From NCBI RefSeq assembly GCF_003334335.1, contig NZ_QOWQ01000049.1: DNA of 30,887 bases; one strand, given 5' to 3'. The notes beneath the pieces are model-generated. The model did not search any database and was not told the origin of the DNA. It worked only from the letters and a program-made list of their open reading frames with translations. The position numbers and the translations under genes are program-made. Positions 6,232-28,336 of the stretch are shown piece by piece (the first letter of the stretch is position 1; the number at the start of each line of letters is the position of its first letter). This DNA comes from Escherichia coli (GTDB lineage: Bacteria > Pseudomonadota > Gammaproteobacteria > Enterobacterales > Enterobacteriaceae).

Positions 6232-6657
6232 ATGAAACGGAACACGAAAATTGCCCTGGTAATGATGGCGCTTTCAGCAATGGCGATGGGATCGACATCT
6301 GCATTTGCTCACGGCGGACACGGTATGTGGCAGCAAAATGCCGCGCCTTTGACCAGCGAACAACAGACAGCGTGGCAGAAAATCCATAATGACTTTTACG
6401 CTCAAAGCAGCGCACTGCAACAGCAACTGGTGACGAAGCGTTATGAATACAATGCCCTGTTAGCCGCGAACCCACCGGATAGCAGCAAAATTAACGCGGT
6501 CGCCAAAGAGATGGAGAATTTGCGTCAGTCGTTAGATGAGTTACGGGTGAAACGAGATATCGCGATGGCTGAAGCGGGTATTCCGCGCGGAGCCGGAATG
6601 GGCATGGGCTACGGCGGCTGCGGTGGTGGCGGTCATATGGGTATGGGCCACTGGTAA
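6232..6657 (+). CDS. zraP: Periplasmic zinc-associated envelope-stress protein ZraP (signal peptide; Gly/Met/His-rich C-terminal tail)
   Basis: True start is the internal ATG at 6232 (MKRNTKIALVMMALSAMAMGSTSAFA signal peptide, GGAGG RBS). The 188-aa track ORF from 6091 runs through the promoter and enhancer and is an over-extension. Confidence 0.9.
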   Translation: MKRNTKIALVMMALSAMAMGSTSAFAHGGHGMWQQNAAPLTSEQQTAWQKIHNDFYAQSSALQQQLVTKRYEYNALLAANPPDSSKINAVAKEMENLRQSLDELRVKRDIAMAEAGIPRGAGMGMGYGGCGGGGHMGMGHW

Positions 6658-6658
6658 A

Positions 6659-7354
6659 TCAGAACGTTTTCTCGTTGGGTTGCCAGCGACAGAAATCAGA
6701 GTTTGCCACTAACAGTAATTGCGAACCTTCGGGCGCTTCCAGCCATGCCACGCTGACATCAACAGAAGAGCGGCTCTGGCGGCGCTCGATATGCGCTATC
6801 GCCTGCGAATCTAAATCAGGTTTAATGGTTTGCCCTTCGCAGGTGGTCACGGTCTGTTCCATCGCATGCCAGCGCCCCTGGCGCAGCACGACTCTCCCCT
6901 GACGTAAGGCATCGCTAATCTGGCGGATCTGATCAGCACGATAACGGTATAAATCGATTTGGTCGTTAGAAAGCTGCTGCTTTTCCCCATCGGATTCACG
7001 TTGCATAAAGCTCAGATCACCGCGATCGTCAAAACGCGCGCGAATATTCACCGGCGGTTTGCTGTAAACATTGATATTGATGAGCGTGAGGTTATCGCCC
7101 TGCCAGCGATACTCTCGCGTCGTGGTATCGCCACTGCGCCACGGGCTAAACACGGCAAGCAGATGCACATTATCGCCGCTGTCTTTTCGCCAGATGCGTA
7201 CCGCGCCCTGGTCTTCAGCAAATCCACTGGCGGTAAAGGGAGGAAGTGAAGAGTTATGACTACAGGCAGTGAGAAGCAGAGCGCCAGCCAGCATCAATGA
7301 TCGACGCCAGAAAGACAAAAGGGGTGAAACCACCCCTTCGTTAAAACTGTTCAC
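6659..7354 (-). CDS. yjaH: Putative lipoprotein YjaH (DUF1481 family)
   Basis: ORF with lipobox LLLTAC-S. The track ORF starts at a GTG at 7360; a second in-frame GTG at 7354 gives 231 aa and is the start I favour from recalled protein length. Start is uncertain by 2 codons. Confidence 0.75.
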   Translation of the reverse strand: MNSFNEGVVSPLLSFWRRSLMLAGALLLTACSHNSSLPPFTASGFAEDQGAVRIWRKDSGDNVHLLAVFSPWRSGDTTTREYRWQGDNLTLININVYSKPPVNIRARFDDRGDLSFMQRESDGEKQQLSNDQIDLYRYRADQIRQISDALRQGRVVLRQGRWHAMEQTVTTCEGQTIKPDLDSQAIAHIERRQSRSSVDVSVAWLEAPEGSQLLLVANSDFCRWQPNEKTF

Positions 7355-11111: not shown

Positions 11112-11588
11112 ATGCTTAACCAGCTCGATAACCTGACGGAGCGCGTCAGAGGAAGTAACAAACTGGTTGATCGCTGGCTACATGTACGTAAGCATCTGCT
11201 CGTGGCTTACTACAATCTGGTTGGCATTAAGCCTGGCAAAGAATCGTACATGAGGCTAAACGAAAAAGCCCTTGATGATTTTTGTCAGAGCCTGGTCGAT
11301 TACTTGTCTGCCGGACATTTCAGTATTTATGAGCGCATTCTTCATAAGCTGGAAGGCAACGGGCAACTCGCGCGCGCCGCGAAGATTTGGCCGCAACTCG
11401 AAGCCAATACTCAACAGATTATGGATTACTACGATTCCAGTCTGGAAACCGCCATCGATCATGATAATTACCTTGAGTTTCAACAGGTTTTATCTGACAT
11501 CGGCGAGGCGCTGGAAGCGCGCTTTGTGCTGGAAGATAAGCTGATTCTGCTGGTGCTTGACGCCGCCCGCGTCAAACATCCTGCTTGA
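11112..11588 (+). CDS. rsd: Regulator of sigma D (anti-sigma70 factor Rsd)
   Basis: 158-codon ORF; translation is the Rsd/AlgQ family; divergent from nudC across a 94-bp promoter region. Confidence 0.95.
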   Translation: MLNQLDNLTERVRGSNKLVDRWLHVRKHLLVAYYNLVGIKPGKESYMRLNEKALDDFCQSLVDYLSAGHFSIYERILHKLEGNGQLARAAKIWPQLEANTQQIMDYYDSSLETAIDHDNYLEFQQVLSDIGEALEARFVLEDKLILLVLDAARVKHPA

Positions 11589-11622
11589 GTTCTGCGCTGT
11601 TAACGCGTAATTTACATTCAAT

Positions 11623-11650
11623 GCCCCATTTGCGGGGCTAATTTCTTGTC
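11623..11650 (+). terminator. Intrinsic terminator downstream of rsd
   Basis: 5-bp GC stem GCCCC/GGGGC with ATTTGC loop, followed by the T-rich tract TAATTTCTTGTC. Confidence 0.6.
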
Positions 11651-11735
11651 GGAGTGCCTTAACTGGCTGAGACCGTTTATTCGGGATCCGCGGAACCTGA
11701 TCAGGCTAATACCTGCGAAGGGAACAAGAGTTAAT
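11651..11735 (+). promoter_or_regulatory. TPP riboswitch (THI element) in the thiC leader
   Basis: Contains the conserved thi-box core CTGAGA (11667..11672) and the downstream AACCTGATCAGGCTAATACCTGCGAAGGGAAC segment, about 90 nt upstream of the thiC ATG. Confidence 0.85.
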
Positions 11736-11817
11736 CTGCTATCGCATCGCCCCTGCGGCGATCGTCTCTTGCTTCATCCGTCGTCTGACAAGCCACGTCC
11801 TTAACTTTTTGGAATGA

Positions 11818-13715
<1,898 letters not shown>

Positions 13716-13716
<1 letters not shown>

Positions 13717-14351
13717 TGTATCAGCCTGATTTTCCTCCTGTACCTTTTCGTTCAGGACTGTACCCGGTGGTGGACAGCGTACAGTGGATCGAACGTCTGT
13801 TGGATGCAGGCGTACGTACTCTCCAGCTACGCATCAAAGATCGGCGCGATGAAGAGGTGGAAGCCGATGTCGTGGCGGCAATTGCGCTGGGCCGCCGCTA
13901 TAACGCGCGATTGTTTATCAACGATTACTGGCGGCTGGCGATCAAGCATCAGGCGTATGGCGTCCATTTGGGGCAGGAAGATTTGCAAGCCACCGATCTC
14001 AATGCCATCCGCGCGGCAGGCCTGCGGCTGGGCGTTTCGACACATGACGATATGGAAATCGACGTCGCGCTGGCAGCACGCCCCTCTTATATCGCGCTGG
14101 GACATGTGTTCCCGACGCAAACCAAACAGATGCCTTCTGCACCGCAGGGGCTGGAACAGCTGGCACGGCATGTTGAGCGACTGGCGGATTATCCCACCGT
14201 GGCGATTGGCGGTATCAGTCTGGCACGCGCGCCTGCGGTGATAGCAACGGGTGTCGGCAGTATCGCCGTCGTCAGCGCCATTACTCAAGCCGCAGACTGG
14301 CGTTTGGCAACGGCACAGTTGCTGGAAATTGCAGGAGTTGGCGATGAATGA
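13716..14351 (+). CDS. thiE: Thiamine-phosphate synthase
   Basis: Translation from the ATG at 13716 (MYQPDFPPV...) gives 211 aa; that ATG shares one base with the thiC TGA stop (TGATG). The track ORF begins one codon earlier at a GTG. Confidence 0.93.
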
Positions 14352-15099
14352 CCGTGACTTTATGCGTTATAGCCGCCAAATCCTGCTCGACGATATCGCT
14401 CTGGACGGGCAGCAAAAACTGCTCGACAGCCAGGTGCTGATTATCGGTCTGGGCGGGCTGGGTACACCTGCTGCGCTGTACCTGGCGGGCGCTGGCGTCG
14501 GGACGCTGGTACTGGCAGATGACGACGATGTGCATTTAAGCAATCTGCAACGACAAATCCTCTTTACCACTGAAGATATCGATCGCCCGAAATCGCAGGT
14601 CAGCCAACAGCGACTGACACAGTTGAATCCCGACATTCAACTGACAGCATTACAACAACGGTTAACGGGTGAGGCGTTAAAAGATGCGGTTGCACGGGCC
14701 GATGTGGTGCTCGACTGTACCGACAATATGGCGACTCGCCAGGAGATTAATGCCGCCTGCGTGGCACTCAACACGCCGCTTATCACCGCCAGCGCGGTCG
14801 GATTTGGCGGTCAGTTGATGGTACTGACGCCGCCCTGGGAGCAGGGGTGTTACCGCTGCCTGTGGCCAGATAACCAGGAGCCAGAACGCAACTGCCGCAC
14901 GGCGGGCGTGGTTGGCCCGGTGGTCGGGGTTATGGGCACTTTGCAGGCACTGGAAGCCATTAAGTTATTAAGCGGTATAGAGACACCTGCGGGAGAACTC
15001 CGACTGTTCGACGGTAAATCGAGCCAGTGGCGCAGCCTGGCGTTGCGCCGCGCCAGTGGTTGCCCGGTATGCGGAGGAAGCAATGCAGATCCTGTTTAA
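14344..15099 (+). CDS. thiF: Sulfur-carrier protein ThiS adenylyltransferase (E1-like)
   Basis: True start [15 protein letters not shown] at 14344 (251 aa) with GxGxxG nucleotide-binding loop and C-terminal CxxC; overlaps the thiE stop by 8 nt. The 282-aa track ORF is an in-frame upstream extension inside thiE. Confidence 0.93.
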
Positions 15100-15283
15100 C
15101 GATCAAGCGATGCAGTGCGCCGCCGGGCAAACTGTTCACGAACTACTGGAGCAACTCGACCAACGACAAGCGGGCGCGGCTCTGGCGATTAATCAGCAAA
15201 TCGTCCCGCGTGAGCAGTGGGCGCAACATATCGTGCAGGATGGCGACCAGATCCTGCTTTTTCAGGTTATTGCAGGGGGTTGA
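15083..15283 (+). CDS. thiS: Sulfur-carrier protein ThiS
   Basis: 66-aa product [16 protein letters not shown]...LLFQVIAGG with the C-terminal Gly-Gly typical of ThiS; overlaps the thiF 3' end by 17 nt. Confidence 0.92.
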
Positions 15284-15284
15284 A

Positions 15285-16055
15285 ATGTTACGTATTGCGG
15301 ACAAAACGTTTGATTCACATCTGTTTACCGGCACAGGGAAATTCGCTTCTTCACAACTGATGGTGGAGGCGATCCGCGCTTCCGGCAGCCAGCTGGTGAC
15401 ACTGGCGATGAAACGTGTCGACTTGCGCCAGCACAACGACGCTATCCTCGAACCGCTTATCGCGGCGGGTGTGACCCTGCTGCCAAATACATCCGGGGCG
15501 AAAACAGCGGAAGAAGCCATTTTCGCCGCCCATCTGGCTCGTGAAGCGTTAGGCACAAACTGGTTAAAATTAGAGATTCACCCTGACGCCCGCTGGCTGT
15601 TGCCCGATCCCATCGAAACCCTGAAAGCCGCCGAAACGCTGGTACAACAGGGATTTGTCGTGCTGCCTTACTGCGGGGCCGATCCGGTATTGTGTAAACG
15701 TCTGGAAGAAGTCGGCTGTGCAGCGGTGATGCCGCTCGGCGCGCCGATTGGCTCGAATCAGGGACTGGAAACCCGCGCCATGCTGGAGATTATTATCCAG
15801 CAGGCCACAGTGCCGGTGGTTGTCGATGCTGGCATCGGCGTTCCCAGCCATGCCGCGCAGGCGCTGGAAATGGGGGCCGACGCGGTGTTAGTGAATACGG
15901 CGATTGCCGTCGCGGACGATCCCGTCAACATGGCGAAGGCATTTCGTCTGGCGGTAGAAGCAGGCCTACTGGCACGTCAGTCCGGACCGGGCAGCCGCAG
16001 TTATTTTGCTCATGCCACCAGCCCGCTGACCGGATTTCTGGAGGCATCGGCATGA
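15285..16055 (+). CDS. thiG: Thiazole synthase
   Basis: True start [20 protein letters not shown] at 15285 (256 aa), one nt after the thiS stop. The 342-aa track ORF is an upstream over-extension through thiF and thiS. Confidence 0.93.
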
Positions 16056-17185
16056 AAACCTTCAGCGATCGCTGGCGACAACTGGACTGGGACGACATCC
16101 GCCTGCGTATCAACGGCAAAACGGCTGCTGACGTAGAGCGGGCGCTAAATGCCTCGCAACTCACCCGCGACGACATGATGGCGCTGTTATCGCCTGCCGC
16201 CAGTGGCTATCTGGAACAACTGGCACAACGGGCGCAGCGTCTGACCCGTCAGCGATTTGGCAACACAGTTAGTTTCTACGTCCCGCTTTATCTTTCCAAT
16301 CTTTGCGCTAACGACTGCACGTACTGTGGATTTTCCATGAGTAATCGCATCAAGCGCAAAACGCTGGATGAAGCGGATATTGCCAGGGAAAGTGCCGCTA
16401 TACGGGAGATGGGCTTTGAACATCTGCTGTTAGTCACTGGTGAACATCAGGCGAAAGTGGGGATGGATTACTTTCGTCGTCATCTCCCTGCCCTTCGTGA
16501 ACAGTTCTCTTCACTACAGATGGAAGTGCAACCGCTGGCGGAGACGGAATACGCCGAGTTAAAGCAACTTGGTCTGGATGGCGTGATGGTTTATCAGGAG
16601 ACATATCACGAGGCGACTTATGCCCGCCATCATCTGAAAGGCAAAAAACAGGACTTCTTCTGGCGGCTGGAAACGCCGGATCGGCTGGGGCGTGCGGGGA
16701 TTGATAAGATAGGCCTCGGCGCGCTAATTGGCCTTTCCGACAACTGGCGCGTTGACAGCTATATGGTTGCCGAACATTTGCTATGGCTGCAACAGCATTA
16801 CTGGCAAAGCCGTTACTCTGTCTCCTTTCCGCGCCTGCGCCCGTGTACTGGCGGCATTGAGCCTGCGTCGATTATGGATGAACGCCAGTTAGTGCAAACC
16901 ATCTGCGCCTTCCGACTGCTTGCACCGGAGATTGAACTGTCACTCTCCACGCGGGAATCACCGTGGTTTCGCGATCGCGTTATTCCGCTGGCGATCAATA
17001 ACGTCAGCGCCTTCTCGAAAACGCAGCCAGGTGGCTATGCCGATAATCACCCCGAGTTGGAACAGTTCTCACCGCACGACGATCGCAGACCGGAAGCGGT
17101 TGCTGCCGCGTTAACCGCTCAGGGTTTGCAGCCGGTATGGAAAGACTGGGACAGCTATCTGGGACGCGCCTCGCAAAGACTATGA
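16052..17185 (+). CDS. thiH: 2-iminoacetate synthase (tyrosine lyase, radical SAM)
   Basis: 377-codon ORF with the radical-SAM CANDCTYC motif; ATGA overlap with the thiG stop. Confidence 0.95.
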
Positions 17186-26920: not shown

Positions 26921-26954
26921 GCGCAAAAAGGCTGGTGACTAAAAAGTCACCAGC
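26921..26954 (-). terminator. rplL-rpoB intergenic attenuator (partial terminator)
   Basis: Perfect 9-bp inverted repeat GCTGGTGAC-TAAAAA-GTCACCAGC (26931..26954) which on the minus strand is followed by CUUUUUGCGCU; lies 41 to 64 nt downstream of the rplL stop. Confidence 0.75.
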
Positions 26955-26994
26955 CATCAGCCTGATTTCTCAGGCTGCAACCGGAAGGGTTGGC

Positions 26995-27426: not shown

Positions 27427-27924
27427 TTAAGCAGCTTCTTTCGCATCGCGTACAGCAGCCAGAGTACGAACCAGTTTGCCAGCCGAAGCTTCTTTCATGG
27501 TTGCCATCAGGCGTGCAATTGCTTCTTCGTAGGTCGGCAGAGTTGCCAGGCGGTCGATCTGAGACGCCGGGATCAGCTCACCTTCAAAGGCAGCGGCTTT
27601 GACCTCAAATTTTGCATTCGCTTTCGCGAACTCTTTGAACAGACGAGCAGCAGCGCCCGGGTGTTCCATAGAGTATGCAATCAGGGTCGGACCAACAAAC
27701 GCGTCTTTCAGGCACTCGAACGGAGTACCTTCAACAGCACGGCGCAGCAGGGTGTTACGAACAACACGCATGTATACGCCAGCTTCGCGACCTGCTTTAC
27801 GCAGTTCAGTCATTTTATCTACAGTTACGCCACGGGAATCCGCAACTACTGCAGACAGCGCGCCTTTGGCTACTTCGCTGACTTCAGCAACAATCGCTTG
27901 TTTGTCTTGAAGATTTAAAGCCAT
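27427..27924 (-). CDS. rplJ: 50S ribosomal protein L10
   Basis: 165-aa translation [49 protein letters not shown]... is L10. Confidence 0.98.
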
Positions 27925-28336
27925 TAGCTTTGCTCCTGGATGTTTGCCAGAGAAAATCTCTGGAACTCACTTCACTCCTCCAAACGGAGAGAGCGTCTTA
28001 ATTACGGTGAGCAGAAACAAGCCAGAATATAAAAGAATAATCTTAGCGTTCTGTCACCGTCTACGCAGGGGATTAAGTTTCTTGCGAAACTCCTGCGGTC
28101 TTCGACGGAGGCCTGGATAGGCCAGGCTCCAACGAACAAATCTTTTCTATCCGTCGCTATTCTGCTTGTGACGGCGTTGGCTTCCTTCATTCGCACCAGT
28201 CACATAGTTAGCTATGCTCCTGGCGACTCACTCAGTTGCCGCCTTGCCACAACCCGAATATCTCGGATATACGTCTGCATTAAGCATTATACGTGGGGGT
28301 AAGATTGTAGACAAAATCACCGCCCACGTAAAGGCA
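27925..28336 (-). promoter_or_regulatory. Long untranslated rplJ leader / rplA-rplJ intergenic region (expected to hold the rplJL promoter and the L10-(L12)4 autoregulatory site)
   Basis: 412-bp non-coding gap in an otherwise compact operon. The regulatory function is from established knowledge of the E. coli rplJL leader; I cannot place the exact sites from sequence. Confidence 0.6.

Follow-up and report, generated by a model that had tools for sequence, protein, structure and literature searches.

The TPP riboswitch of the thiCEFSGH leader in an Escherichia coli contig: identification and comparative support for the published switching model

We have identified the element that lies between rsd and thiC in a 30,887-base stretch of Escherichia coli DNA (hereafter the window, numbered from its first base) as the E. 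coli thiC TPP riboswitch. It stands at the 5′ end of the thiCEFSGH mRNA and shuts the operon off when TPP is high, exerting two levels of control through one structural switch. We assign this reading a probability of roughly 0.96, and nothing that contradicts the TPP riboswitch identification was found. The riboswitch is already known, being annotated in RefSeq, belonging to a well-known family and having been dissected on this exact sequence. Its use here is that of a positive control, in which a riboswitch was correctly recognised from raw sequence. The by-products are comparative support for the published model and the finding that a structurally conserved hairpin lies immediately next to the mapped 5′ end.

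Family match, locus and operon

A first-pass annotation of the window, made from the letters alone, had proposed a TPP riboswitch in the thiC leader and had named a covariance-model scan as the check. All 30,887 bases were scanned on both strands against the 4227 families of Rfam 15, and the result was clearly positive: the TPP riboswitch family (RF00059, THI element) matches at 11640-11740 (+) with 74.8 bits (gathering score, 54.3; E = 3.3e-13). The cmscan alignment is untruncated, spanning model positions 1-105 of 105. P1, P2, P3 and P4/P5 are all aligned around the three-way junction, with non-standard pairs only in the variable P3 and P3a stems. The identification is borne out as well by RefSeq, whose annotation of an E. 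coli genome with 100% identity places a feature named "TPP riboswitch" exactly there (locus 6641-6741, corresponding to window 11640-11740). The match lies between rsd and thiC on the thiC strand, with 81 nt from its end to the AUG at 11821.

The thi-box can also be read directly, with CUGAGA at 11667-11672 and ACCUGAUCAGGCUAAUACCUGCGAAGGGAA at 11694-11723. These agree with the consensus (CUGAGA; ACCUGAUC..GG.UAAU.CC.GCG.AGGGA), and the P4-P5 arm, ACCUGAUC...GCGAAGGGAA, falls within 11694-11723. The ligand contacts of this arm (11696-11721) are presumably those assigned from TPP riboswitch crystal structures. Folding stability was not in excess of that of dinucleotide shuffles for either the aptamer (z = 0.10) or the full leader (z = -0.11); with z-scores this near zero, folding energy is uninformative, and the evidence consists of the covariance model and conservation.

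The range first proposed for the element, 11651-11735, takes in the thi-box core and begins downstream of the 5′ strand of P1 (11645-11649). Its boundaries are good to about 10 nt, the aptamer starting some 6-12 nt earlier (by 11645 or 11639). The functional switch reaches to approximately 11825, because the expression platform includes the SD and the AUG.

Window positions 11581-11880 are identical to K-12 MG1655, so that experimental results published for the thiC riboswitch carry over at every base. Over the whole of rsd to thiC, the window and MG1655 differ by a single substitution, at 13380, which lies in thiC. Many complete E. coli chromosomes are 100% identical to the window over its first 24 kb, and a search with a 401-base query spanning the leader was positive in 5421 of the 5426 complete E. 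coli genomes. In one chromosome, NZ_CP031912.1 (E. coli O111:NM), the 401-base rsd-thiC query is found in two pieces over 644 bases (4801929-4802572), and the match overlies an annotated "IS3 family transposase", which suggests an insertion near the riboswitch in that strain.

The gene order, taken from the RefSeq annotation of the 100%-identical genome, is hemE(-), nudC(-), rsd(+), the riboswitch, thiC-thiE-thiF-thiS-thiG-thiH(+), yjaZ(-) and rpoC(-). Operon coordinates are from the same annotation, with the locus shifted by +4999, together with the list of open reading frames:

11821-13716, + strand: thiC
13716-14351, + strand: thiE
14344-15099, + strand: thiF
15083-15283, + strand: thiS
15285-16055, + strand: thiG
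16052-17185, + strand: thiH

The genes thiE, thiF, thiS, thiG and thiH are contiguous or overlapping downstream of thiC, giving a regulated operon at 11821-17185 (+). Control of thiCEFSGH by the element, as first claimed, is supported by the position of the leader 5′ of the operon on the same strand, by the contiguity of the operon, and by the identity of the leader to that of K-12, for which control by TPP has been published.

Three Rfam matches in the window exceed their curated thresholds, and the TPP riboswitch is the sole one typed "Cis-reg". The first-pass description of it as the one clear cis-regulatory RNA in the window therefore holds for Cis-reg matches at the Rfam gathering level, but is too strong as a general statement, since a P26 match is also present between rplL and rpoB. 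This match (26929-26990, - strand; 74.5 bits against a gathering score of 36) comprises two hairpins followed by a U-run, at what we take to be the site of the attenuator or processing region classically placed between rplL and rpoB. A full-length match to the sroH sRNA (RF00372; 17433-17593, + strand; 201 bits) occupies the gap between thiH and yjaZ on the thiH strand; its end is two bases short of the stop codon of yjaZ, a gene on the opposite strand. In the rplA-rplJ leader, the Actinobacillus sRNA model Arrc08 gives a sub-threshold match (27916-28183, - strand; 37 bits against a gathering score of 219; E = 6e-7), and weak matches to the S15-leader and V_AS5 models lie nearby. The region 27916-28183 is probably the conserved autoregulatory leader of rplJ (L10), for which the match list holds no dedicated enterobacterial model. 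We assume that the rplJ and rplK leaders and the rplL-rpoB element in the window are classical ribosomal-protein autoregulatory or attenuator RNAs. A low-stringency Rfam scan of the whole window revealed no further credible cis-regulatory family, the rplJ-leader matches being well below their gathering scores.

Leader architecture, switching and conservation

Published residue numbers were transferred to the window by placing +1 of PMC5234074 at 11639. With this numbering 10/10 named residues match (C7, G16, G31, A138, C158, U160, U184, U186, C187 and U188), and no alternative offset within ±15 nt gives seven or more matches. The parts of the leader are as follows:

11639, + strand: published 5′ end (+1) of the thiC mRNA, equal to NC_000913.3 4196280 on the minus strand; primer extension (PMC5234074)
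11639-11644 with 11729-11733, + strand: extended P1, nt 1-6 with 91-95; PMC5234074 and MFE structure of the 124-nt transcript
11640-11740, + strand: TPP aptamer; RF00059 and RefSeq feature
11645-11649, + strand: 5′ strand of P1, CUUGU, nt 7-11, pairing with 11724-11728; Rfam alignment and MFE structure of the 124-nt transcript
11667-11672, + strand: CUGAGA of the pyrimidine-sensing arm, in which G11669 is the ligand-contact residue G31; direct reading and coordinate mapping
11696-11721, + strand: P4-P5 arm CCUGAUCAGGCUAAUACCUGCGAAGG, the pyrophosphate-sensing thi-box helix; Rfam alignment
11724-11728, + strand: 3′ strand of P1, ACAAG, nt 86-90; Rfam alignment
11738-11778, + strand: C-rich, G-poor linker, nt 100-140, proposed rut site; composition, with the rut assignment from PMC5234074
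11784-11792, + strand: 3′ strand of anti-P1, UCUGACAAG, nt 146-154, predicted to pair with 11645-11653 (CUUGUCGGA) in TPP-free RNA; MFE structure of the 173-nt transcript and PMC5234074
11787-11800, + strand: 5′ strand of the RBS/AUG-sequestering stem, GACAAGCCACGUCC; full-leader MFE structure
11811-11825, + strand: 3′ strand of the sequestering stem, with the SD-like GGA at 11811-11813 and the AUG at 11821-11823 (nt 183-185)
11822 and 11825, + strand: pause and Rho termination points U184 and C187; mapped from PMC5234074

Growing transcripts of the leader were folded computationally. The MFE structure of the 124-nt transcript has the aptamer closed by the extended P1. That of the 173-nt transcript, which is the RNA outside a polymerase paused at 187, contains a 9-bp anti-P1 (7-15 with 146-154), and in the full-length leader 149-162 pairs with 173-187, a pairing that takes in both the AUG and the SD-like GGA. 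Because 11787-11792 is part of both anti-P1 and the sequestering stem, only one of the two helices can form at a time. The unconstrained MFE structure of the full leader is without P1, as expected for a ligand-stabilised helix. The linker at nt 100-140 has 16 C and 9 G in 41 nt (16 C and 8 G in the 40 nt of 101-140), the strongest bias of C over G in the leader, and the same linker holds a predicted local hairpin at about 11741-11762. A scan for a hairpin plus T-run found no intrinsic-terminator-like site on the + strand in 11640-11820, as would be expected if termination between the aptamer and the AUG depends on Rho and is not intrinsic.

The 3′ strand of P1 can also pair with the linker (11722-11730, AACAAGAGU, with 11766-11775, CUCUUGCUU), and this helix (84-92 with 128-137) appears in the MFE structures of transcripts of 144 nt and longer. 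As a candidate second lock on P1 it was rejected, being significant in only 14 of 101 platforms among the matches listed; it is probably lineage-specific or incidental, and is not counted as part of the switch.

In the model to which these helices belong, the aptamer (11640-11733) would be made first and would bind TPP co-transcriptionally, closing P1 (11645-11649 with 11724-11728). With P1 closed, 11787-11800 would be free to pair with the SD/AUG region at 11811-11825, blocking ribosome binding, and the C-rich linker would be exposed as a loading site for Rho. The polymerase would pause on the start codon, where Rho and NusG would end transcription (11822/11825). When TPP is lacking, the 5′ strand of P1 would instead pair with 11784-11792 once the polymerase reaches the pause, and the resulting anti-P1 would prevent both P1 and the sequestering stem, so that transcription and translation could go on. 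The family match, the identity to K-12, the alternative helices with their mutual exclusivity, and their conservation in relatives come from the present analysis.

TPP-dependent control of the K-12 thiC leader was reportedly described by Winkler, Nahvi and Breaker in 2002, as cited in Chauvier et al. 2017. For TPP binding, Rho/NusG dependence, the pause sites and translational repression we draw on published work on the identical sequence. Chauvier et al. 2017 (PMC5234074) found that thiC-lacZ translational fusions are 65% repressed by TPP, that transcriptional fusions are also repressed, and that G31C abolishes the response to TPP. Regulation of thiC is abolished by the Rho inhibitor bicyclomycin and retained in rne-131 (PMC5234074). 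In vitro, TPP-dependent termination at U184/C187 amounts to about 16% with Rho and about 64% with Rho and NusG, and the control reaction from which Rho was omitted gave neither premature products nor intrinsic termination (PMC5234074). Pause sites of RNA polymerase were mapped at A138, C158 and C187. While the polymerase waits at C187, RNA without TPP is held by the anti-P1 stem in a conformation of low TPP affinity, and mutations in anti-P1 (147-149) bring this affinity back in the EC-187 complex (PMC5234074). The same study reports Kswitch values for TPP, shows the accessibility of the proposed rut region by nuclease probing, and shows TPP to repress in vitro translation (PMC5234074, Fig. 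1g-h).

To collect relatives, a degenerate pattern of 40 nt was taken from the aptamer and matched against the DNA of one genome for each species, which gave at least 120 loci. The listed loci all belong to the Enterobacterales, ranging from Escherichia to Proteus, Photorhabdus and Dickeya. Among these listed matches, the N-terminus of ThiC is encoded approximately 130-260 nt downstream in 115 of 120 loci, and rsd lies upstream on the same strand in 87 of those listed.

The expression-platform pairings that compete with P1 are conserved in these leaders. An alignment of 88 distinct segments running from anti-P1 to the AUG, drawn from the matches listed, has GACAAGC and GCUAUGUC invariant. Within it, 94.6% of the cells of the sequestering stem are paired, a share that drops to 28-42% once the 3′ partner is shifted by 1-3 columns (88 relatives among the matches listed). 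The bulged position of the stem varies freely in the same alignment of listed matches. One clean compensatory pair was observed in the stem, being C-G in 40 and A-U in 42 of the 88 segments from the matches listed, and it may reflect a single clade split. Covariation in the platform is thin because most paired positions never vary.

Among the matches listed there are 101 distinct platforms, and in 99 of them the duplex between the 5′ strand of P1, CUUGUCGGAG, and the platform outscores 95 or more of 100 dinucleotide shuffles. Its median energy in that listed set is -12.6 kcal/mol, and it forms at the GACAAG box in 99/101 platforms. The distal part of anti-P1 differs between lineages: UCU is directly adjacent in Escherichia-type leaders, Proteus has CCGACAGG, and Serratia- and Yersinia-type leaders have CUCC after a one-base bulge of variable identity. 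Taken as supporting evidence and not as independent proof, since the relatives were picked through the aptamer pattern and are not an independent sample for the aptamer, this comparison of 101 distinct Enterobacterales leaders among the matches listed supports the published model of anti-P1 and the sequestering stem at the level of sequence.

Some leaders depart from this arrangement. Eight from Providencia and its relatives (L017, L040, L050, L052, L054, L060, L087 and L120) and one from Hafnia (L025) have the same aptamer, but the 70 nt next to the AUG contain no GACAAG box. In the Providencia-type leaders GUGACAAUGUCAGGAAAUUGCUAUGUC adjoins the start codon, and the length is greater by as much as about 120 nt. 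The expression platform looks rearranged in these leaders.

A smaller difference concerns the T-run at 11804-11808, in the loop of the sequestering stem. The window and K-12 have 5 T here; E. albertii, E. whittamii and two other E. coli representatives (L004, L079, L026 and L043) have 4. This variation is a one-base length polymorphism in the loop.

The same evidence bears on how the switch is read out. If TPP acted solely by hiding the SD and the AUG, loss of mRNA would be secondary, untranslated message being degraded or terminated with no direct control by Rho. Such translational control is the classical model for enterobacterial TPP riboswitches. It is in keeping with a sequestering stem over the SD-like GGA and the AUG that is the most conserved part of the platform, and with the repression of in vitro translation by TPP (PMC5234074). 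The purely translational reading is nevertheless very unlikely: it is largely refuted by the in vitro assay, in which the termination of about 64% with Rho and NusG depends on TPP in a purified, ribosome-free system. It is further opposed by the in vivo regulation of transcriptional fusions, which is lost with bicyclomycin and kept in rne-131 (PMC5234074). Intrinsic attenuation in the Gram-positive style, in which TPP would let a terminator hairpin and U-tract form in the leader, is the common arrangement among Firmicutes TPP riboswitches, and the local hairpin at about 11741-11762 could be considered for that role. That hairpin is followed by CGUCUCUUGC and not by a U-tract, and the terminator scan and the Rho-free control described above (PMC5234074) lead us to reject an intrinsic-terminator platform, for which we see next to no chance.

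Equally improbable is that the resemblance to a TPP aptamer is due to chance or decay, or that control is exerted through a small leader peptide encoded by the TTG-start ORF at 11646-11804. This ORF of 52 codons does run across the leader in the list of open reading frames, and the folding energy of the leader is no better than that of its shuffles. This reading is opposed by an E-value of 3.3e-13 over the whole window against 4227 families and by a leader that is invariant relative to K-12 and found in nearly all complete E. coli genomes (5421/5426). The leader peptide was rejected because the distance from aptamer to AUG steps by single nucleotides among the relatives in the matches listed (133, 134, 135, 136, 137 ... 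nt), so that no reading frame survives, whereas the RNA pairings do. A Rho-dependent TPP riboswitch that also controls translation remains our preferred reading of the leader.

The rsd hairpin and the 5′ end of the thiC transcript

The first-pass annotation had also placed the riboswitch directly after the rsd terminator, and a hairpin answering to that description is present just past the rsd stop codon:

11623-11638, + strand: GC hairpin GCCCC-AUUUGC-GGGGC, followed by UAAUUUCUUGU; terminator scan

The hairpin has five G-C pairs (-10.6 kcal/mol) and lies 35 nt past the stop codon (11586-11588). Its U-rich tail overlaps the start of the riboswitch and runs into the P1 strand. A hairpin of at least 5 pairs occurs at this position in 40 of 41 distinct Enterobacteriaceae-type intergenic regions among the matches listed. 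Among the same listed regions, the hairpins have 27 different 5′ arms, and at least 5 T follow within the next 10 nt in 36/41. Structure is kept where sequence is not, which argues for a real terminator-like element, and we infer that it terminates rsd transcripts.

Primer extension cannot tell primary ends from processed ends or reverse-transcriptase stops. The published +1 (11639), which is based on primer extension of total RNA (PMC5234074), is one base past the hairpin. A consensus scan of 11400-12000 found no sigma-70 consensus promoter, and a literature search for genome-wide TSS data bearing on the thiC +1 turned up only Chauvier et al. 2017, with its primer extension. In Serratia-, Yersinia-, Photorhabdus- and Proteus-type relatives among the matches listed, a near-consensus -10 (TATACT/TATAGT) occurs 7-9 nt upstream of the first base of P1. 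In these distant relatives it sits inside the loop of the equivalent hairpin. From this position transcripts should start at P1, in agreement with the +1 of E. coli.

In the Enterobacteriaceae the hairpin loop is not -10-like, and a conserved box, TTAACGnGTA(A/G)TTTACA, is found at 11600-11616. TTGAGW over the rsd stop codon, followed after exactly 17 nt by TA(A/G)TTT, is present in 38 of 46 distinct Enterobacteriaceae-type sequences among the matches listed. In the window this promoter-like pair is TTGAGT at 11585-11590 and TAATTT at 11608-11613, with a spacing of 17 nt. Judged from its motifs, the pair may act as an alternative promoter whose transcripts would begin near 11620 and include the hairpin in their leader; the coding of rsd may account for some of the conservation seen here. 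It is conceivable, if unlikely, that thiC is transcribed from this pair or by read-through from rsd, that the hairpin belongs to the thiC leader, and that 11639 is a processing site or a reverse-transcriptase stop. If this were true, expression of the sigma-70 antagonist Rsd would be coupled to thiamine biosynthesis, and a terminator-like gate would stand directly before the riboswitch. The E. coli promoter serving the riboswitch is not evident from the sequence.

Comparison with known systems

The riboswitch shares its sequence, its gene context and all mapped residues with the K-12 thiC riboswitch, and the leader is without any difference. The E. coli thiM and thiB (tbpA) riboswitches have in common with thiC the Rfam family, the thi-box core, a platform that sequesters the SD, and the anti-P1/anti-sequestor logic. 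Pausing close to the start codon is reported for thiM and thiB (tbpA) as well (PMC5234074; PMC11487190, PMC10578472). The operons differ, thiM and thiB serving a salvage kinase and transport, and both loci lie outside this window. The thiC platform, at about 90 nt, is presumably also longer than those of thiM and thiB, with a C-rich proposed rut region and Rho termination at the start codon.

Ligand-dependent Rho termination in a leader that has no intrinsic terminator links thiC to the FMN riboswitch of E. coli ribB and to the Mg2+-responsive mgtA leader of Salmonella. In contrast to these, thiC modulates both rut accessibility and pause half-life (PMC5234074), and the aptamer class differs. 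The TPP riboswitches of Firmicutes, such as those of the B. subtilis tenA and thiC leaders, share the aptamer family, the ligand and the OFF logic, whereas their platforms are terminator/antiterminator pairs, and the E. coli thiC leader has no such terminator. Among TPP riboswitches that depend on Rho, the element described here is the type example, and it is identical at every base to the one that has been studied.
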